IMG/VR virus record: IMGVR_UViG_3300042301_003793
DNA length: 64,000 bases
From: a virus
Reading direction: 5' to 3' (one strand)
Positions 16,843-32,870 of the stretch are shown piece by piece. Position 1 is the stretch's first letter, and every line of letters starts with the position of its first letter. The position numbers and the translations under genes were made by a program. Under the pieces are notes generated by a model, which saw only the letters and a program-made list of their open reading frames with translations, was not told where the DNA came from and searched no databases.

Positions 16843-17061
16843 CTAACACTGATAAAAATTAAATATTTCACAATCGTTTGAATCGATAAGTTTTACAAGT
16901 AGCGAACCAACGTTATTTAATGGGGGTGGAACCTCAAAGGTATATGCGGAAATGTATGTTCCGCCGGAAACTAAATAACAATAAGTGTTTGTGACATCAC
17001 AAACATACACATCGTATGGTGGTGTTCCAGTGGTTCCAGATATTGTAATTTCGTGTAACAT
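16843..17061 (-). CDS. Small Cys-containing hypothetical (possibly virion) protein
   Basis: 72-aa ORF tightly packed in the operon. Confidence 0.6.
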   Translation of the reverse strand: MLHEITISGTTGTPPYDVYVCDVTNTYCYLVSGGTYISAYTFEVPPPLNNVGSLLVKLIDSNDCEIFNFYQC

Positions 17062-17062
17062 A

Positions 17063-17581
17063 TTAACTACATATAGGACTTAATGTTGGTGTAGGTGTAT
17101 TAGTCGGTGTATTTGACGGTGTAGGTGTATTAGTCGGTGTATTTGACGGTGTAAAATTTGGAGGCAACGGAGTAACACACAAGTCCCAAGTAGGAGTTGG
17201 TGTAGGTGTTGGTGTTGCAGTTGTTGTTGCCGTCGGAGTATTTGTAGGTGTAGGAGTCTGCGTTGGTGTTGGTGTGTTAGTAGGAGTCTGCGTTGGTGTT
17301 CTAGTAGGTGTTGGAGTTGGTGTTCTAGTAGGTGTATTTGTTGGAGTTGGTGTAGGTGTTGGCCTTGGTACATTTAAAAAGTTTGTACAATTACCACCAT
17401 CTGTTGATATTGTATATGTCCCATAAATTTCTTGTTGGGGTGTTAATAAATCTGGTTGAAAAGTGTATGGAAGTATAACAGAACCAATATTTATTGTAAT
17501 AGTACTATTATCTGGTTTGAATAATATTTGAGCAGGTTCACCGCTAAAATTTACACTTTGTATTGTAATTATCTGACTCAT
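17063..17581 (-). CDS. Thr-Pro-rich mucin-like protein
   Basis: About half the protein is [14 protein letters not shown] repeats; TATTTAT motif upstream. Confidence 0.7.
17088..17153. repeat. Exact 30-bp tandem duplication in the PT tract
   Basis: GGTGTAGGTGTATTAGTCGGTGTATTTGAC at 17088-17117 and 17118-17147, plus a partial third copy. Confidence 0.9.
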
Positions 17582-17612: not shown

Positions 17613-17816
17613 TTATTTTTTAATTTTAATGTATTTGAACCAAACTCTTTCGTGTAAAAAATAAATAATTGGTTTTAATATTAATTCACCTAAACCTAAT
17701 AAAGAAGATATTTCTACTGACGCCCCAAGACAATATGCGACTACAACTGTGGTGATTGTCCCAAAAATTCTATAAGAAATTGTTTTTAATAAATGTCTTT
17801 TTAAGTCTGACTTCAT
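17613..17816 (-). CDS. DUF2061-like small membrane protein
   Basis: RHLLKTISYRIFGT...YFLHERVW pattern; two hydrophobic segments. Confidence 0.7.
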   Translation of the reverse strand: MKSDLKRHLLKTISYRIFGTITTVVVAYCLGASVEISSLLGLGELILKPIIYFLHERVWFKYIKIKK

Positions 17817-17817
17817 T

Positions 17818-18273
17818 TTAATTTTTTTCCAATATCAATAAAACATCATCTTGTATGATTGGGTCAACTAATTTTTTCCAGTAATCATCTTTATTTTTTA
17901 TACAATTTCTAATACCAGTTGCAGAAATCCCACCAATTTCTTTTGGTGGTGTAAATTCATTTACTTCATATCCAACACCGCGACCAAAATTAACAGATTC
18001 AATATCTGGAATAATGATAACTTTAACATCATCACCTTTTGATTTATGGTACTTCTCAATCATAGAAACTGTTTGTTCTGTTGTAAAAGGATTTTTTTCA
18101 TCAGGTTCAATATCTCTAATCATAATTAAAACTGGTACTCCTTCATTTAATTTTTGTTGGATTAACTCAATGTGACCAAAATGATAAGGTTGATAACGAC
18201 CTACAAAAACTGCATACTTTTTACTTTCGTTATTTGTTGGATTTCCTCCGTGGTTTTTCTTTTCCCAACTCAT
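17818..18273 (-). CDS. HxGH nucleotidyltransferase (cytidylyltransferase/NMNAT-like fold)
   Basis: GRYQPYHFGH, NPFT, ISATGIR motifs. Confidence 0.8.
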   Translation of the reverse strand: MSWEKKNHGGNPTNNESKKYAVFVGRYQPYHFGHIELIQQKLNEGVPVLIMIRDIEPDEKNPFTTEQTVSMIEKYHKSKGDDVKVIIIPDIESVNFGRGVGYEVNEFTPPKEIGGISATGIRNCIKNKDDYWKKLVDPIIQDDVLLILEKN

Positions 18274-18725
18274 ATGTGTTTAATTATTTCGTTTAATGAT
18301 TCTTGTGGATTAACACCTGTTGTATTAATATCAACAAAATTTTCTGATGGTTGTTCATACTCATCTGTATGGAAATGTTCTCTGCCTCTAATGTCTGTTG
18401 TATGAACATAAAACTCAACTAATAAATTTTGTAAATCATATTTAAAACTTTCTCTTAATTCTTTGTAAGGTGCAACAAGACTTACAATTACATCGTATCC
18501 TTGTACTAATAAAAATTTTGCAATGTCTTGAGCTCTTTTGATGTTTTCTTCTCTACCTTCTCTACCGTATTTTTGGTTATTGAAAAGTCTTCTTAATTCA
18601 TCACCGTCAATATGGAATACTTTATTTCCATATTCTTTTTCTAAAATTGTTTTTAACATTGTCGCTAATACAGTTTTACCAGCTCCTGGTTGTCCTGTAA
18701 ACCAATAAATCTTTTTTTCTTTCAT
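18270..18725 (-). CDS. cysC: Adenylyl-sulfate kinase (start probably 18725)
   Basis: WFTGQPGAGKT P-loop, IDGDELR, SLVAPY, YEQPSE. Confidence 0.85.
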   Translation of the reverse strand: MKEKKIYWFTGQPGAGKTVLATMLKTILEKEYGNKVFHIDGDELRRLFNNQKYGREGREENIKRAQDIAKFLLVQGYDVIVSLVAPYKELRESFKYDLQNLLVEFYVHTTDIRGREHFHTDEYEQPSENFVDINTTGVNPQESLNEIIKHI

Positions 18726-18727
18726 AA

Positions 18728-19546
18728 TCAAAAATAACCGAATTGGTCGTAAAACCATTGATGTTTTTGTTTTATCCAGTTACAAGCTGGTGTTCCAAGA
18801 ACTTCTTTATAATCTAATTTTAATGGTTCAATTTTAGATTTAATATTATGGTCACCATAAATTCCATAAACAGAATCATCTTCTTGTGTTATTTGTGTAA
18901 CATTATCAAAGTCGTGTTCAAAGTATGGTAACTCAAGATATTTATAAATTCTTTCCATTTCTTTTTTTGGATTTGAAGTGAAGTCTTCGAATTTAACAAA
19001 TAACATTTTATGATTAATACCTTCTTTGAAGATTTGATAAAGTCTTTCGACAGCCAAACCAACTGGTTGTGATTGTGACCAAATATCAATTCTTTTTTCT
19101 GTTGTAGTTCCTTGCATTTGCGCGTGATTAACAACACCAGAATCCATATGTTGACTCTTTCTAAAATTCTTTTCCATTGAGGCAAAGATTCCACGTAAGT
19201 CTCTTACCATACAAATAATCTTTGGTTCTGGATAAAAAGAATTTAAAAACCCATAATGAATACCCCAACCTCTACTTTTATCTAAAACATATGGTTTATC
19301 TGTTACACCATTAAAAAAACCTAACATACCTTGATTACAAAAGTTTAGAAAACCTTGTTTCATTAATTCTGAATCTTGTGCTTTAAACTCAGGTGATGAA
19401 GTGTAGTTTGCTCTTGCAGCATAAACTAATTCTAAAACACCAGATGTTGGTGTTACGTAAAACTCTGGATTTTGTCCCATAACATTTTGAAGTAATGTTG
19501 ATCCAGCTCTTGGTAATGAACTTTGGAAAAATATTTTTTCTACCAT
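18728..19546 (-). CDS. PAPS-dependent sulfotransferase
   Basis: SSLPRAGSTLL (5'-phosphosulfate loop) and VRDLRGIFAS (3'-phosphate motif). Confidence 0.85.
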   Translation of the reverse strand: MVEKIFFQSSLPRAGSTLLQNVMGQNPEFYVTPTSGVLELVYAARANYTSSPEFKAQDSELMKQGFLNFCNQGMLGFFNGVTDKPYVLDKSRGWGIHYGFLNSFYPEPKIICMVRDLRGIFASMEKNFRKSQHMDSGVVNHAQMQGTTTEKRIDIWSQSQPVGLAVERLYQIFKEGINHKMLFVKFEDFTSNPKKEMERIYKYLELPYFEHDFDNVTQITQEDDSVYGIYGDHNIKSKIEPLKLDYKEVLGTPACNWIKQKHQWFYDQFGYF

Positions 19547-19549
19547 AAT

Positions 19550-20434
19550 TTAATTTTTTAGTGTTTCTATTATTTCGTTTATATTAAAGATGTTTGTATC
19601 AAATAAAGGACATTCGTGTATTGTACCATTAAAGTTGTAATCAAATAAGTAACTATCTGGTAACTTAACTGTTGTTGGTAGTTCTGCTATAATGTTTGTG
19701 TGTAATGGATAACCAAATACTTTTGGTGATGTACCAATCCACAATATGGTTGATGGTAGACCCATAGCAGCTGCCGCATGTTGTAAACAAGAATCAATTA
19801 ATAATCTTTTTTGAGCATAAGCTAATAATGAAAATAATTCCATATTAGACATAGGTTCTACGTGAGCCTCAACATTTTGTAAAACATTTGTTTGGTCTCT
19901 ACAAATTTGAATTATGTGATAATATTGTGAAAAGTGGTCAACAATTTTTTGAGCAACATCAAAAGGAATATCCCTTGTCCAAGAATATGGATATGGCTGT
20001 TCTTGTAATGGACCACCGTTTGTTTGAATGACCATTACAGGTTTTTCTCTTTTCCATTTATTAAATGCAACTTGTTGTTGTCTTAAATTAAATGAAAGTG
20101 ATGGCATTTCACCGTTATATTCTAAACCAAAAAGTTTACACCAATTCATAATTAATGGTAACTTTTTTTGGATATGGTCTGTTGTAAAATAAGGTTCGTG
20201 TTTAAAAATTAAACTATCTTTATCTTTAATGTAATCATCATAAAAATATGGTGTCATACCAATTCTATATACTCTATCAATAAAATCTAAATTTAAAAAT
20301 ATTTCTGGGTAAGCACAGACAATAATTAATTCCCTATCTGGGTGATTGTTTTTTATACATTTTGCAACAGCAGTTGATAGAACGTGTTTTCCTAAACCAC
20401 CTTCTAAATGAAATATACTATATTTTTTTTCCAT
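19550..20434 (-). CDS. GT9-like (GT-B) glycosyltransferase
   Basis: EGGLGKHVL and IDSCLQHAAAAMGLPSTILW motifs. Confidence 0.65.
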   Translation of the reverse strand: MEKKYSIFHLEGGLGKHVLSTAVAKCIKNNHPDRELIIVCAYPEIFLNLDFIDRVYRIGMTPYFYDDYIKDKDSLIFKHEPYFTTDHIQKKLPLIMNWCKLFGLEYNGEMPSLSFNLRQQQVAFNKWKREKPVMVIQTNGGPLQEQPYPYSWTRDIPFDVAQKIVDHFSQYYHIIQICRDQTNVLQNVEAHVEPMSNMELFSLLAYAQKRLLIDSCLQHAAAAMGLPSTILWIGTSPKVFGYPLHTNIIAELPTTVKLPDSYLFDYNFNGTIHECPLFDTNIFNINEIIETLKN

Positions 20435-20450
20435 AATAAGATTATAATTT

Positions 20451-21368
20451 TTAATTTTTGTTAGTAAAGATAATTGCTTCGTTAATCTTATCTATTACCA
20501 TTTTTGGTTTTATTTTTGTGTGACATTCGTTTTCTCTTTCTGTTCCTAAAAATATTGGACATTTAGTTTTTATATTTGGAAACATATTAAAACATCCATT
20601 ACAAACATAAGGGTTTGTGACTCTAAAACAATCAAATTCGTTTTGACTTTTTGTAAAATTTGAAATCATAACAACTGGTACGTCATAGGCCCAAGCAAGC
20701 CAAGAAAGACCTGAAGATAAACCAACAAAGAACCTTGAACTAACAATATGGTCAATTGCAACATTTAAATCATCGTGACCGTGAAAACCAATAACATTTT
20801 CTAAATTCATTGTATTTTCATAAGAAATGTTATAAACGTTGTAACCTACATTATGTAATGAATTTACAATTGTTTGCCAACCCTCATTCCCATTATATTT
20901 CCATTGTGAAATTTCTTTAATTGTTTCTGGACCCATAGTAATTTTATTTGGGTCTATTGTTCTTAGTTTTGGAATTACTGGACATTTACCTGGTTTTGTT
21001 TCTTGCGGTAATCGCATTGTATCTTTAGCAGCATAAAACATACCACCTAAAGTGTGTGCCATATTATTTTTATCATAACCAACATCAACTAGTTTATCAA
21101 TTTCTAAAAAACCACTTTCATTTGCGTTAATAAACTCATAGTCTGGTCTATTTGATTTTAATAGGTGTGGAAAAAAAGTTGTAACCCAAACGTACTTTGG
21201 TTTGTGATAATCCATAAAAGCATCCATCAAAGATGAAAAACAAATTGTATCACCTAAACAAAATGAGTCAAAGTGTAATAATAATTCTTTTCCTTCAAAG
21301 GTTTCTAAGTTTGGCTCTCTTTCTTTATAGTTCATCAACTCAGAATTGTCGTAATGTCTTTTAACCAT
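20451..21368 (-). CDS. TibC/Aah (BAHT)-like autotransporter heptosyltransferase homologue
   Basis: CLGDTI, FFVGLSSGLSWLAWA..VPVVMISNFT, and iron-finger-like CNGC..CP..EC. Confidence 0.75.
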   Translation of the reverse strand: MVKRHYDNSELMNYKEREPNLETFEGKELLLHFDSFCLGDTICFSSLMDAFMDYHKPKYVWVTTFFPHLLKSNRPDYEFINANESGFLEIDKLVDVGYDKNNMAHTLGGMFYAAKDTMRLPQETKPGKCPVIPKLRTIDPNKITMGPETIKEISQWKYNGNEGWQTIVNSLHNVGYNVYNISYENTMNLENVIGFHGHDDLNVAIDHIVSSRFFVGLSSGLSWLAWAYDVPVVMISNFTKSQNEFDCFRVTNPYVCNGCFNMFPNIKTKCPIFLGTERENECHTKIKPKMVIDKINEAIIFTNKN

Positions 21369-22104
21369 TTTTATATTTTAAAAGTTTAGAGTAATATTCA
21401 AACCAATATCTTTCTTGCCAGATTGTACCTTCTTCCAAATACACCAATGGTTTTTGTTGCCAAGGTTTTTTTACAATGTAGTGTAAAATTTTAATATGTT
21501 TTGGTAGTCCTGTATTTTTGAATATTTCTTTTGAATATGTTTTTAAGTAATTATATGATACTGGTATTTCAGTTATTTCATCATAAAAATAATTATTAAT
21601 AATATCTTGGTCCAGATGTTCTGTAATCCCATATATTGTTGTAAGATGTATTAAATCATCTGTTATTTTTTCAGATAAATATTTTTTTGAGATAACAAGA
21701 ACACCTGTGTTGTATTGGTCAATATATAAATCTCTAACACCACCAATATCACCATCAAAATCAATTAGATAATCAATGTTTCCTAAAATAACAACATCTG
21801 AATCTAAAAATATAATTTTGTTAAATTCAGTTAATGAAAAAATTTCATATTTAGTATAATCACCAAAAGACATTTGTTTTTCTTTTAGTTTTTCTATTTC
21901 AGAATATTTTTCGGTGTCAAATCTTTTTATGTGTATATTATTGTACATTCTTCTTGAGGCGACTAAATCTTCTGGTGTTAAATCATTTGTGATGATTACA
22001 AATGGTAATTTTTCACTAACAACTCTTGGGTTATTATCTATTAACGATTTTAACATTACCTCAAATCCTATAAGATAATCTTTATTACATACAGTTACAA
22101 ACAT
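21361..22104 (-). CDS. GT8 glycosyltransferase (glycogenin-like)
   Basis: YTKYEIF, IIFLDSD, YNTGVLV, DQDIIN, HYIVKKPW. Confidence 0.85.
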   Translation of the reverse strand: MFVTVCNKDYLIGFEVMLKSLIDNNPRVVSEKLPFVIITNDLTPEDLVASRRMYNNIHIKRFDTEKYSEIEKLKEKQMSFGDYTKYEIFSLTEFNKIIFLDSDVVILGNIDYLIDFDGDIGGVRDLYIDQYNTGVLVISKKYLSEKITDDLIHLTTIYGITEHLDQDIINNYFYDEITEIPVSYNYLKTYSKEIFKNTGLPKHIKILHYIVKKPWQQKPLVYLEEGTIWQERYWFEYYSKLLKYKNG

Positions 22105-22130: not shown

Positions 22131-22166
22131 AAAATAAAGAACCCCAACTGTTTTAAAATTGGGGTT
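22131..22166 (-). terminator. Intrinsic terminator after fibre gene 2
   Basis: AACCCCAA (22140-22147) / TTGGGGTT (22159-22166) stem; T-rich run follows on the minus strand. Confidence 0.7.
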
Positions 22167-29953: not shown

Positions 29954-32818
29954 TTAAGAACCAACTTCTGTTGCAAGACAAATTTCTCCATTTTCTCTAA
30001 TAAGTCTAGTCATATCGTTAAAAGATATATAAGCATGACCACCAAGACCCCAAGATTTTCCCCAACTATTTTTAATTCTAAAAACTTTTTTATTTAAGTC
30101 CACACCATTTATAAGATAAGCGTGACCACCAACAAATCTACCAGTTAATCTTATGTTTCCATTTCTATCTGGAAAAAACATTCCATTATACCAATTTGTA
30201 CCAACTACAACAGGACCAACCTTTAATACTGTATTTACAAGTGTTGATAAATCAAATGCCCAATAATAAGATTTTACTTTACCAATTTGTTGTAAATATT
30301 TTACAGCACCCCTAACTGATGTACCATTATAATTTTCACCTGGCCATTGGTCTAATTTTTGTGCATTAAAATAAATTGTACTTGGATGTACAACTGGTGG
30401 TTTGCCGGACTGTTGAACCGGTCCATCTTCCAACCAATGTGACCAGGAATACCCAACACATTGTGGTAGTGCTCCTTGATTACCCCACCATCCATTTGCG
30501 TCCCAAAATCTTTGTGTTAATATTTGTGGTTTTGTTGAGATTGACTGTATTAATTTTTGATTATTTTTAATTAGGTAATTTAAATCTCTTTTGTCTTCAA
30601 CATAAATTCTTCCTAATTCAAAAGGTAATGTTGATGCACTTGATGGTGTTATTTCAGTTTCACCACTTATTGTATATGTAAAATCATTTGTTAAACAAAT
30701 TTCTGTATCACAATCTGGACAGAAAGGATTAAACAATCTAAATTTATCTTTTAGTATATTAAAGTTGTGTCTTATTTCAGAAGAATCTAAAGGTTGTACA
30801 TACATCCTAAATTGTGAAATACCCCCTTCAAACGTACCACCAAATTCTTTTTCCAATAATATATTTGTTGTAAGACCAGACAATGATGTACCAGATAAAA
30901 CAGATGTTGGGAACAACTCTGGGTCCTGTATAAAATCACTACTTAAATTTTCACAAGTTGATGGTACTAAATTTTCGTGAAGTCCTTGTGTACCACCACC
31001 CCAAGAAATGTTAAATGGAACCCCAACTTGTTTTTCTTTGTCTGTCGGTAATGCCCTTGGGATTAGTTCTTCAAAATCTTTTATTGTGTATATTAATTTA
31101 CCATTAACATAAATTAGTAATTTACCTTTTCTATATTTTTCATCTAATAACCAACTATCATTTAACTTAACAGTTTCTATTTGTTCAGATTCTTTTTTAC
31201 CGTTTGAATATGGTGGAGCAATTAAAGTAAAACTATTGTTTGCTAAACTTTCAAGGTATTCTTTTTTTGTAATATCTCCTAGACCACCAAACCACCATAA
31301 GTCACAGTTATCTAAATTTGTATATCGTTTCCAGACAACATCTAATAAAAACCAATGTTCTTGTTCTATAAATGCTGGATTTTGTTGTTCACAATAAGAA
31401 TATATTGGTGGTGTACACCATTCTTGGATTGTATAACCGGTAACAAATGTTGTTCCAGTTCCAGTTACTGTATTTCCAGTTGTAATACATTCACCAGTAA
31501 ATCTTAAAACTTTTATACCTATACCTGGATTTTGTGGGTCACCACATAATTTGAATGAGATGTTATTCGACATTGAATCGAGTAGCGGGTCTTTTTCGCA
31601 AGTATCCTCTACGGATGTAAACCCAGAAGTAGGACAATCCAAACAATCAAGACAAGTATCACAAGTTGTACAAGTCGGTGTACATTCAGGAAGTGGTGTA
31701 TCACAACTTGGTGTAGGACTAGGAAGTGGTGTAGGTGTTGGTGTTGGTTGTATTACATCACCACAATAGTGTGTCTGACATTCCCAACCACAAGTTTCAC
31801 AAGCAAATTGATTACAACCACAACCACACGTTGCTGCACTCATAGGATTACCTTTACAAGAACCACAACCATAATTTATATGTGGGTCGTGAATACCATT
31901 TAACGAACGTGGTGGATAAAGATATATACACCTACTATTTGTAATATTTAAATTACAACAAGCACAAGTCTGTAAACAATTTGCAAGCGGTGTTGTAACT
32001 CTTGTATAACCAGTAAAACATCTTGGTGTTCCGTCAGCATAGTGATAAAACTTATTTTCAGCTCTAGTTCCCCAATAGAAAAAAGTATTTTTATTATTTG
32101 GATATAATCCGTTTAGTGTTGTTTCACCAGAACTTGGTAAGTATTCATTACACAATCTTGGTTTTAAAAGTAACTCAACACTCCATCCTTTGTTCATTCT
32201 TTCTGGGAAAATATCATAGTCAAAACCAAACAATTTATAAAATCCTTGATAAAAACCACCATATAATTCGTGATAAACACCTTCTGTTGCCCCAGTCTTA
32301 CTGATGACTTCATATAATGTCTGAGCACTAAACGCCTCAAACCTATTTAAATTTGTTGTATGCCCCGTAACTTGAAAAAGTTTAAGTCTTCTATCGTAAT
32401 ACATTCTATCAAACTTAACTCCGTCCTCAAATATACCATTTGTAAAATATATTGTTTGACCACTCATTGTATCGACTAATCCATTATCAATACCGGTAAA
32501 TCCAATATCACAAGAAGTTGATGCAGTAAAAAAACAAAAATTAGAATTTTCTGGGTTATAATAATTTTGTGAAACAAAAATGTTGTTTTTATTATAATTT
32601 TTATATTTTAAATTAAGTTTTTGTGCTGTTAATGAATCGTTTATATCAAAATAAAACGGAAGCTTGTTACCGTAGGTTTGTGCTATAATATATGGTGAAA
32701 ATATAACTTCTTCTTTATAGTCCCTTTCATCCGAAGCTAGGGACATATCCATACTATCAGATACTAAACCTATATTGATTTTTTTATAAACATATTGATT
32801 AATATTCTGTTGTGACAT
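29954..32818 (-). CDS. Putative structural protein with LamG-like region, Cys-rich/PT linker and C-terminal papain-like (C1) cysteine peptidase (start probably 32818)
   Basis: NQGALPQCVGYS (Gln/Cys), GGHAYLING (His), IKNSWGKSWG (Asn); LLIYVNG and FEGGISQFRMY resemble LamG. Confidence 0.7.
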   Translation of the reverse strand: MSQQNINQYVYKKINIGLVSDSMDMSLASDERDYKEEVIFSPYIIAQTYGNKLPFYFDINDSLTAQKLNLKYKNYNKNNIFVSQNYYNPENSNFCFFTASTSCDIGFTGIDNGLVDTMSGQTIYFTNGIFEDGVKFDRMYYDRRLKLFQVTGHTTNLNRFEAFSAQTLYEVISKTGATEGVYHELYGGFYQGFYKLFGFDYDIFPERMNKGWSVELLLKPRLCNEYLPSSGETTLNGLYPNNKNTFFYWGTRAENKFYHYADGTPRCFTGYTRVTTPLANCLQTCACCNLNITNSRCIYLYPPRSLNGIHDPHINYGCGSCKGNPMSAATCGCGCNQFACETCGWECQTHYCGDVIQPTPTPTPLPSPTPSCDTPLPECTPTCTTCDTCLDCLDCPTSGFTSVEDTCEKDPLLDSMSNNISFKLCGDPQNPGIGIKVLRFTGECITTGNTVTGTGTTFVTGYTIQEWCTPPIYSYCEQQNPAFIEQEHWFLLDVVWKRYTNLDNCDLWWFGGLGDITKKEYLESLANNSFTLIAPPYSNGKKESEQIETVKLNDSWLLDEKYRKGKLLIYVNGKLIYTIKDFEELIPRALPTDKEKQVGVPFNISWGGGTQGLHENLVPSTCENLSSDFIQDPELFPTSVLSGTSLSGLTTNILLEKEFGGTFEGGISQFRMYVQPLDSSEIRHNFNILKDKFRLFNPFCPDCDTEICLTNDFTYTISGETEITPSSASTLPFELGRIYVEDKRDLNYLIKNNQKLIQSISTKPQILTQRFWDANGWWGNQGALPQCVGYSWSHWLEDGPVQQSGKPPVVHPSTIYFNAQKLDQWPGENYNGTSVRGAVKYLQQIGKVKSYYWAFDLSTLVNTVLKVGPVVVGTNWYNGMFFPDRNGNIRLTGRFVGGHAYLINGVDLNKKVFRIKNSWGKSWGLGGHAYISFNDMTRLIRENGEICLATEVGS

Positions 32819-32870
32819 CTTTTTTATTAATAAATACAACAATTCAAAGTATTTATATTAAAACTATTTT

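Follow-up and report, generated by a model that had tools for sequence, protein, structure and literature searches.

A candidate minimal ATP sulfurylase in a putative sulfation cassette of a large uncultured phage

A sulfation cassette of four genes is proposed for this phage sequence, by which a small HxGH nucleotidyltransferase (NT) would adenylylate sulfate, a kinase would convert the resulting APS to PAPS, and a sulfotransferase would sulfate an acceptor; we place the probability of this reading at roughly 0.7. All sulfate assimilation, dissimilation, and sulfation begin with ATP sulfurylase, and to our knowledge genome annotation and metabolic models use only two types of the enzyme, Sat and CysDN. 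Judging from comparison with hundreds of genomes, NT is probably an undescribed, minimal third kind, and no published description of the NT family was found in the literature. NT would be a much reduced relative of the NMN adenylyltransferase (NMNAT) of archaea, non-orthologous to Sat and CysDN, with the reaction ATP + sulfate -> APS + PPi. PAPS would then be formed by the short APS kinase, which is translationally coupled to NT and would phosphorylate APS at its 3'-OH, thereby pulling the unfavourable sulfurylase step forward, and the sulfotransferase would use PAPS for sulfation. The likeliest acceptor would be a glycan made by glycosyltransferases of the same operon and attached to phage proteins (fibre or particle) or to a surface polymer of the host; it is only from this glycosyltransferase context that we infer sulfated glycans as the product.

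The cassette derives from a large uncultured aquatic phage, and lies within a glycosyltransferase operon that has fibre genes on both sides. Four translationally coupled genes follow one another on the minus strand of the window (the whole stretch of 64,000 nucleotides that was analysed): a sulfotransferase that is a predicted PAPS user (18728-19546; 272 aa), a short APS-kinase-family kinase (18270-18725; 151 aa counted from the ATG at 18725), NT, the candidate minimal ATP sulfurylase (17818-18273; 151 aa), and a small predicted membrane protein, DUF2061 (17613-17816; 67 aa). For the kinase, the longest open reading frame spans 18270-18758, and the likelier start is the ATG at 18725 (MKEKKIYWFTGQPGAGKT), 2 nt past the sulfotransferase stop. 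The NT start overlaps the kinase stop (ATGA), and DUF2061 starts 1 nt past the NT stop. Upstream of the cassette, in the same operon and on the same strand, are three abutting or overlapping genes with Pfam/NCBIfam matches to glycosyltransferases: GT9-like (19550-20434), TibC-like (20451-21368), and GT8 (21361-22104). Related phages also have these genes ahead of the cassette, and the order sulfotransferase-kinase-NT-DUF2061 recurs in related phage contigs, so the arrangement is not a product of chance. Between a fibre gene and the cassette-bearing operon is a terminator-like hairpin (22140-22166, minus strand) with a 10-bp stem and a T-rich tail, identified by consensus match only. A promoter scan of the region gave results no better than shuffled sequence, and megablast found nothing matching the region among plasmids and phages.

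The sequence-only reading had described these four genes as contiguous and the window as devoid of CysD/CysN or Sat; open reading frames and family scores confirm the former, and a six-frame search bears out the latter. With Flavobacteriales CysC, CysD, and CysN and three Sat proteins as tblastn queries (E<=1), no similarity to Sat, CysD, or CysN was detected in any frame of the 64-kb window; the only significant matches (E ~1e-13) were to the kinase gene, and one additional CysC match (E=0.52) is at chance level. Nor were Sat, CysD, or CysN found in three related phage genomes of 95-100% completeness, one of which carries the same cassette. A canonical sulfurylase elsewhere in the genome, which would have counted against the proposal, was thus found neither in the window nor in these near-complete relatives.

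The sulfotransferase matches PF13469 (71.6 bits), PF00685 (43.9 bits), and phrog_27463 (142.8 bits), and contains a 5'-phosphosulfate loop (P12-R-A-G-S-T17) and a 3'-phosphate motif (R115-D-x-R118...S123), which we take, from established knowledge of sulfotransferases, to be the 5'-PSB and 3'-PB motifs; it therefore combines the profile match and both motifs of a PAPS-dependent sulfotransferase. A sulfotransferase is found within 6 kb of NT in only 29 of 79 phage loci. The kinase scores 69.7 bits against PF01583 (APS_kinase; cut-off 21.1), and alignment with canonical CysC reveals that the Walker A motif, D40-G-D42, R45, R58, and N61 are invariant. Thus, the profile match and the catalytic and APS-site residues of an APS kinase are present, whereas the features of a full-length equivalog with a mobile lid are not: the lid is shortened by 14+4 = 18 residues relative to canonical CysC, and NCBIfam adenylyl-sulfate kinase models give ~72 bits, below their cut-offs of 127-244. 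The low scores and trimmed lid place the window kinase in a divergent subgroup, and its substrate can consequently be assigned with less certainty than those of the canonical partners encoded elsewhere; the trimmed enzyme presumably still uses APS.

NT has an H31-F-G-H34 motif and matches PF01467 (30.5 bits), the only Pfam family detected at E<=0.01; there was no match to PF01747 (Sat). Its AF2 model (pLDDT 94.7) has the fold of HIGH-type nucleotidyltransferases, which, like the HxxH motif, is common to all enzymes of that group. The closest fold is that of an archaeal NMNAT (1f9a: Z 13.9, rmsd 2.5 A over 131 residues, 30% identity), ahead of Thermus thermophilus Sat (1v47: Z 9.9, 129 residues aligned) and other Sat structures (Z 6.7-8.1). 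All residues that are at least 80% conserved in the family are present in NT (numbering +14): R26, H31, H34, R53, P62, and D90, as well as G97-R98-x-V100-G101-Y102, S117, T119, and R122. Across the family, conservation is 96-99% for the catalytic HxGH and SxTxxR residues and ~95% for R53 and R98. Arg53 and the GRGVGY loop (G97-Y102) are family-specific, and the additional conserved arginines R53 and R98 would suit a small anionic acceptor. The catalytic activity of NT is itself a prediction.

Sat-type ATP sulfurylases (PF01747; such as 1v47 and yeast 1j70) catalyse the reaction proposed for NT, and share with it the HIGH nucleotidyltransferase fold, the HxxH motif, and an ISxTxxR-type motif; both are also fused or adjacent to APS kinase, and both occur in cysH operons. 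However, Sat proteins are roughly 350-570 aa in length compared with 151 aa for NT, which has only ~20 residues ahead of its first strand. The N-terminal PUA-like domain and the GRDHAG/QxRN sulfate-site motifs of Sat are absent from the NT sequence and model, in which GRGVGY and VRD are found instead. Alignment of the NT family with five Sat sequences (hhalign) covered only 35 C-terminal columns, comprising the ISxTxxR region, at a probability of 16%; because the alignment is limited to this region, we do not equate GRGVGY with GRDHAG. Against a sulfurylase function, the nearest characterised enzymes in both sequence and fold are NMNAT and PPAT rather than Sat.

Gene context links NT closely to APS kinase. 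An APS-kinase homologue is encoded directly upstream of NT in 78 of 79 phage loci (45-96% NT identity), the sole exception being interrupted by a contig end, and closely related phages have a canonical CysC (228 bits) as the partner. Among the best 150 NT cluster representatives (50% identity), 46 are fused to an APS-kinase domain, in the order kinase-NT (34) or NT-kinase (12), with PF01583 scores of up to 230 bits; phrog_10255 is likewise a fusion of NT and an APS-kinase domain. The single-chain kinase-NT fusions have the domain order of bifunctional PAPS synthases (metazoan PAPSS1/2, 1x6v; compare bacterial Sat-CysC fusions such as that of Aquifex, 2gks), which constitute the same two-step unit (ATP + sulfate -> APS -> PAPS). 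Unlike those synthases, the phage would divide the activities between separate, translationally coupled genes, the sulfurylase half would belong to another, far smaller family, and the kinase lid is trimmed.

The association with DUF2061 is narrower. The gene product matches PF09834 (59.6 bits, cut-off 23.1; covering positions 1-51 of 52), and is encoded next to or near NT in 59 of 79 phage loci; no homologue was found within ~8 kb of NT in 80 cellular loci. It may anchor or assist the module, as the sequence-only reading proposed, on the strength of its co-occurrence with NT in phages. Invariant charged residues are R7, H8, K11, R16, E44, K48, H55, E56, and R57, and the longer homologues consist of DUF2061 only, with no fusions to other domains. 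Complex prediction for the kinase and NT with DUF2061 as partner returned a score of 0.00 ("no answer"), which speaks neither for nor against binding.

In cellular genomes, NT takes the place of known ATP sulfurylases. Across 301 sampled Flavobacteriales genomes, NT is encoded in 12, none of which has CysD or Sat, and 11 of the 12 have a single canonical cysC directly upstream of NT; by comparison, 117 of 122 genomes with cysC but without NT encode CysD or Sat. The usual order in this group is cysC-cysD-cysN, and marine Flavobacteriales with NT have cysC-NT-(unknown)-cysQ-wzx followed by three sulfotransferase genes, such that NT occupies the position of cysDN. CysDN (as in E. coli and most Flavobacteriales) thus shares with NT its operon position after cysC, and the two are mutually exclusive, as expected of proteins with the same role. 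CysDN has an unrelated fold, however, combining a PAPS-reductase-like ATP pyrophosphatase with a GTPase, and it draws on GTP hydrolysis to drive the reaction; NT has no such partner. In the phylum of genome G006 (Dadabacteria/Thermodesulfobacteriota; 101 genomes), NT is encoded in 66 genomes, Sat in 18, and CysD in 12, with zero overlap; five genomes lack all three. These profiles are raw counts that ignore phylogeny, and many of the genomes are MAGs (~25 are single-chromosome assemblies); each NT, Sat, or CysD state may therefore represent one or a few clades, so that independent replacements are few (at least three lineages) and the Fisher values exaggerate the statistical support.

Complete NT-bearing chromosomes encode one canonical CysC, a CysH-type reductase, and sulfite reductase, and neither Sat nor CysD. 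Four MAGs labelled Nitrospiraceae/Nitrospirales have in common the order sulfite reductase, cysH, NT, with NT last in the operon and no adjacent APS kinase; an Rrf2 regulator gene precedes these genes in three of them, and the fourth ends at a contig end. For 50 NT-bearing cellular genomes overall, CysC was identified in 48, CysD in none, and Sat in four; three MAGs labelled Nitrospiraceae encode NT plus a Sat-CysC fusion, and the exclusion between NT and Sat is therefore not absolute. The claim drawn from the phage sequence, that NT may supply APS and so complete a route to PAPS, is thereby supported by four lines of evidence: adjacency or fusion to APS kinase (the sequence-only reading had itself suggested counting how often the family neighbours or fuses to cysC), replacement of cysDN, the sulfite reductase-cysH operon, and exclusion of Sat and CysD in two groups. 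It is likely that the NT family (130-160 residues, NMNAT-derived) constitutes a third, independent, and smallest known class of ATP sulfurylase, used by phages, marine Flavobacteriales, Dadabacteria/Thermodesulfobacteriota, and MAGs labelled Nitrospiraceae, and present in many fusions.

The resemblance of NT to NMNAT raises the alternative that it is a conventional nucleotidyltransferase for NMN (or for another cofactor or a sugar-phosphate), carried as a phage auxiliary metabolic gene that happens to lie beside sulfation genes. Archaeal-type NMNATs (NadM; 1f9a from M. jannaschii, 1ej2 from M. thermautotrophicum; TIGR01527) are the best structural and sequence neighbours of NT and provide its best named matches; they share the ATP-site motifs GRxQPxHxGH and SxTxxR (SxTxIR) as well as NPFT. 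Moreover, phage NMNATs are known, and phrog_3462 is a weak match to NT. Nevertheless, the NMNAT models score far below their cut-offs (45.2 bits vs. 181.2 for TIGR01527, and 50 bits vs. 127 for NF002243), with the match confined to positions 21-111, and NT has VRD where archaeal NMNAT has GSAQ. In the profile alignment, residue 76 of 1f9a is followed directly by residue 110; NMNAT residues 77-109, a segment of ~30 residues that is presumably the nicotinamide/NMN-binding part, are missing, and NT has only SVNYGRGV in their place. The neighbours of NT in phage, Flavobacteriales, and Nitrospiraceae-labelled loci are sulfur genes rather than genes of NAD salvage. NAMPT was detected in one of five related phage records, at 230 kb from NT, and in none of the other four, including a complete phage relative with the same cassette, which further weakens an NMNAT function. 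Given these tests, together with the near-universal APS-kinase adjacency or fusion and the exclusion of Sat and CysD, an identity that had been named in advance as counting against the proposal is rejected for NMNAT itself, and the broader alternative is very improbable.

A second alternative retains the functional pairing but changes the chemistry: NT would attach a nucleotide to a different small anion or to a phospho-compound, the kinase would add the 3'-phosphate to give a PAPS-like donor, and the sulfotransferase-fold enzyme would transfer a group other than sulfate. Candidate groups are phosphoramidates, as in the MeOPN pathway of Campylobacter jejuni, or phosphonates. In that pathway, the APS-kinase homologue Cj1415, which acts on another nucleotide donor, and the cytidylyltransferase Cj1416 provide a 3'-phosphorylated nucleotide donor for a surface glycan, and the combination of a nucleotidyltransferase with an APS-kinase homologue resembles the phage pair. 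APS-kinase homologues with other substrates therefore exist, and the divergence of the window kinase is compatible with such a role, as is the position of NT in Dadabacteria, between a class-I glutamine amidotransferase-like gene and a methyltransferase gene. However, the MeOPN pathway requires a glutamine kinase and an amidohydrolase and employs a different nucleotidyltransferase family, and no glutamine-kinase-like gene was identified among the Pfam-scanned open reading frames, which cover part of the window. PEP mutase was not found in five related phage records, which weakens the phosphonate version. The NT orthologues at 60-76% identity have as partners canonical CysC (230-240 bits), cysQ, cysH, and sulfite reductase, in addition to sulfotransferases, and their exclusion of Sat and CysD makes sense for sulfate only. 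As the phage sulfotransferase also retains PAPS-type motifs, a non-sulfate donor is unlikely. It is likewise doubtful, and slightly more so, that NT binds or processes adenine nucleotides within the PAPS pathway without being a sulfurylase, whether as a subunit that regulates or scaffolds APS kinase or as an enzyme that handles APS or PAPS, with APS supplied by the host or by an unrecognised enzyme. That NT is adjacent or fused to APS kinase proves a functional connection between the two, not a reaction. In addition, cysDN is present in most Flavobacteriales, which as potential hosts could provide APS. Such a role would nonetheless leave unexplained the complete chromosomes with NT, CysC, CysH, and sulfite reductase that lack Sat and CysD, the three-way exclusion of NT, Sat, and CysD, the cysH-NT operon, and the strong conservation of the HxGH and SxTxxR catalytic residues.

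If NT is an ATP sulfurylase, it would close an apparent pathway gap in some complete chromosomes, which have the genes for APS kinase, PAPS/APS reductase, and sulfite reductase and none for a known sulfurylase, and it would alter the inference of sulfur auxotrophy for abundant marine lineages. Lineages that are now scored as being without sulfate activation would be able to assimilate or donate sulfate, and biotechnology would gain a compact PAPS synthase made of two genes or a single chain. For the phages, it would mean that PAPS can be made unaided, and that large phages are self-sufficient for sulfating glycans, probably those on their own particles or fibres.

The window has a G+C content of ~30% and encodes, among others, a family-B DNA polymerase, a SNF2 helicase, long repeat fibres and many glycosyltransferases; its closest relatives are IMG/VR viral contigs of 180–385 kb. 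A four-gene, head-to-tail cassette on the minus strand (17613–19546) encodes, in order, a sulfotransferase with PAPS-type motifs (PF13469/PF00685), a short APS-kinase-family kinase (PF01583, 69.7 bits; likely start an ATG at 18725), the 151-aa HxGH nucleotidyltransferase (NT; 17818–18273; PF01467; motifs GRYQPYHFGH and ISATGIR) and a 67-aa DUF2061 protein, the successive junctions being a 2-nt spacer, a 4-nt ATGA overlap and a 1-nt spacer. The cassette continues an operon that begins, after a terminator-like hairpin (22140–22166), with three glycosyltransferase genes, and that extends beyond the cassette to a Pro/Thr-rich protein and two more glycosyltransferase-like genes. The kinase gene is the sole significant match in tblastn searches of the window with CysC, CysD, CysN, and Sat queries; ORFs, domain matches and tblastn together confirm the sequence-only reading of a four-gene cassette with no Sat, CysD or CysN gene in the window.

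The Pro/Thr-rich protein (172 aa, mostly Pro/Thr repeats; 17063–17581, minus strand) lies directly downstream of DUF2061 and is followed by a 72-aa Cys-containing ORF (16843–17061, minus strand). Neither has a Pfam match, and the Thr-rich tract of the former is a plausible candidate acceptor for O-glycosylation or sulfation. Elsewhere in the window, an Fe/Mn superoxide dismutase domain (PF00081 and PF02777) is present in full within a 698-aa phage protein (2500–4596, plus strand), flanked by ~160 and ~340 unmatched residues. The C-terminus of a 962-aa protein (29954–32842, minus strand) gives a weak papain-like (Peptidase_C1) match, and in the related contig L001 this protein likewise stands ahead of the block of fibre and glycosyltransferase genes.

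As a check on the earlier proposal that this small NMNAT-like protein supplies APS, we counted how often NT adjoins or is fused to an APS kinase. A kinase homologue lies directly upstream of NT in 78 of 79 viral loci (the remaining locus ends at a contig end), and in some of these loci the two form one ORF. Among the best 150 representatives of the NT family at 50% identity, 46 are fusions with APS kinase (34 kinase-NT and 12 NT-kinase), with PF01583 scores reaching 230 bits; phrog_10255 is also a kinase/NT fusion. That the fusions occur in either order strongly indicates that NT and APS kinase share a pathway. In loci L013–L019 (e.g., L013:5031–5996), a 76%-identical NT is partnered by a canonical APS kinase (228 bits) to which a C-terminal HAD-like hydrolase region is fused; DUF2061 is present and a sulfotransferase is absent within 6 kb. 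Overall, DUF2061 occurs in 59 of the 79 viral loci, and a sulfotransferase lies ≤6 kb from NT in only 29. DUF2061 is phage-specific within the sample compared and has nine invariant charged residues, and no fusions to other domains were found among its homologues.

NT-family members are also fused to other domains (P0254, 432 aa; P0139, 249 aa). The C-terminus of one such fusion is DHHA1-like (a weak match, below cut-off) and resembles the NrnA-type PAP phosphatase family, another carries DUF6717, and several proteins of ~375 aa (including P0128, P0171, and P0214) have an unmatched 236-aa N-terminus.

A sulfurylase encoded elsewhere in the phage genome, which the sequence-only reading had set against its own proposal, was sought in five related viral records, and no Sat or PAPS-reductase-family (CysD) gene was found; three of these records are 95–100% complete, one of which carries the same cassette. 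The host could supply APS to the phage, although this leaves the constant NT-kinase pairing unexplained.

Cellular genomes also carry the NT family, at 60–76% identity. NT occurs in 12 of 301 Flavobacteriales genomes, with a single canonical cysC immediately upstream in 11. None of the 12 encodes CysD or Sat, versus 117 of 122 cysC-positive genomes without NT (Fisher p = 1e-12, uncorrected for phylogeny); in three of the other five, the cysC matches are cut off at contig ends. The common Flavobacteriales order is cysC-cysD-cysN; in NT-bearing genomes it is cysC, NT, a conserved uncharacterized gene, cysQ (PAP phosphatase family), a Wzx-type flippase and three sulfotransferases. This cysC-NT-cysQ cluster is of the sulfated-polysaccharide type, a known sulfurylase being the one part missing. 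The conserved gene between NT and cysQ (236 aa; L101:8525–9235, with counterparts in L088, L093, L097, and L142) has a weak DeoC/LacD-like match as its sole match. CysC is unmatched in just one of the 12 NT-bearing genomes, where the NT match (G269:C54:2503–2871) is shorter, contains a TAA stop and may be a decaying copy.

In a second sample, the 101 genomes of the phylum of G006 (Dadabacteria/Thermodesulfobacteriota), NT is present in 66, Sat in 18 and CysD in 12 with zero overlap, and only five have none of the three (Fisher p = 8e-21, uncorrected for phylogeny). Complete NT-bearing chromosomes of this phylum encode one canonical CysC, a CysH-type reductase and sulfite reductase, and lack Sat and CysD. 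In Dadabacteria (e.g., L139:7115–9369), NT lies away from cysC, with a class-I glutamine amidotransferase/peptidase C26-like gene on one side and a SAM methyltransferase on the other. Across 50 NT-bearing cellular genomes, CysC is encoded in 48, CysD in none and Sat in four. All these co-occurrence profiles may reflect a few clades, and many surveyed genomes are MAGs. Of the four genomes with Sat, three are Nitrospiraceae-labelled MAGs that encode a separate Sat-CysC fusion; in these and in one MAG labelled Nitrospirales, NT comes last, after sulfite reductase(-TusA) and cysH, with an Rrf2 regulator at the head where the contig reaches. This operon is conserved at L094:4107–8462 and in L090, L091, and L095 (the L094 sulfite reductase is an 822-aa, TusA-fused protein with a weak HEPN match), and the place of NT in it is that of a sulfate-activating enzyme.

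The top named matches of NT are archaeal NMNAT/NadM models, at 45–50 bits against cut-offs of 127–181, and NCBIfam holds no specific model for the family. A confident AlphaFold model (pLDDT 94.7, built from 27 family members) has as fold neighbours M. jannaschii NMNAT (Z 13.9), PPAT (Z 12.9) and T. thermophilus Sat (Z 9.9); the likeness to Sat extends to the common fold and the ISxTxxR motif. The family profile covers NMNAT residues 5–76 and 110–154, whereas residues 77–109, the segment with the nicotinamide contacts in published NMNAT structures, are represented in NT by only eight residues (SVNYGRGV). In 118 representatives of the family, R26, H31, H34, S117, and R122 of the ATP site are 96–99% conserved, and R53 and R98 equally so; NMNAT lacks both arginines, R53 lying in VRD, where NMNAT has GSAQ, and R98 in G97-R-x-V-G-Y102. 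The window NT carries all seven residues. We infer that the acceptor pocket, smaller and lined by extra arginines, fits a small anion. Its scores, the missing segment and the gene context, with NAMPT absent from the complete phage relative, all speak against NT being a plain NMNAT.

We also considered whether the kinase-NT pair makes a PAPS-like, non-sulfate donor (phosphoramidate or phosphonate), as the divergent window kinase with its trimmed lid might suggest; however, NT orthologues pair with canonical CysC, cysQ, cysH, and sulfite reductase and exclude Sat and CysD, and no PEP mutase was found in five related phage records. A non-catalytic or accessory role for NT in the PAPS pathway would leave the pathway hole on complete chromosomes unfilled. 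Comparative genomics instead supports the proposal that NT supplies APS, to which we assign a probability of about 0.7. Our literature search found no description of the family, and, judged from sequence comparison, NT is most likely an ATP sulfurylase of a new, minimal class; together with the adjacent kinase it would make up a split PAPS synthase.
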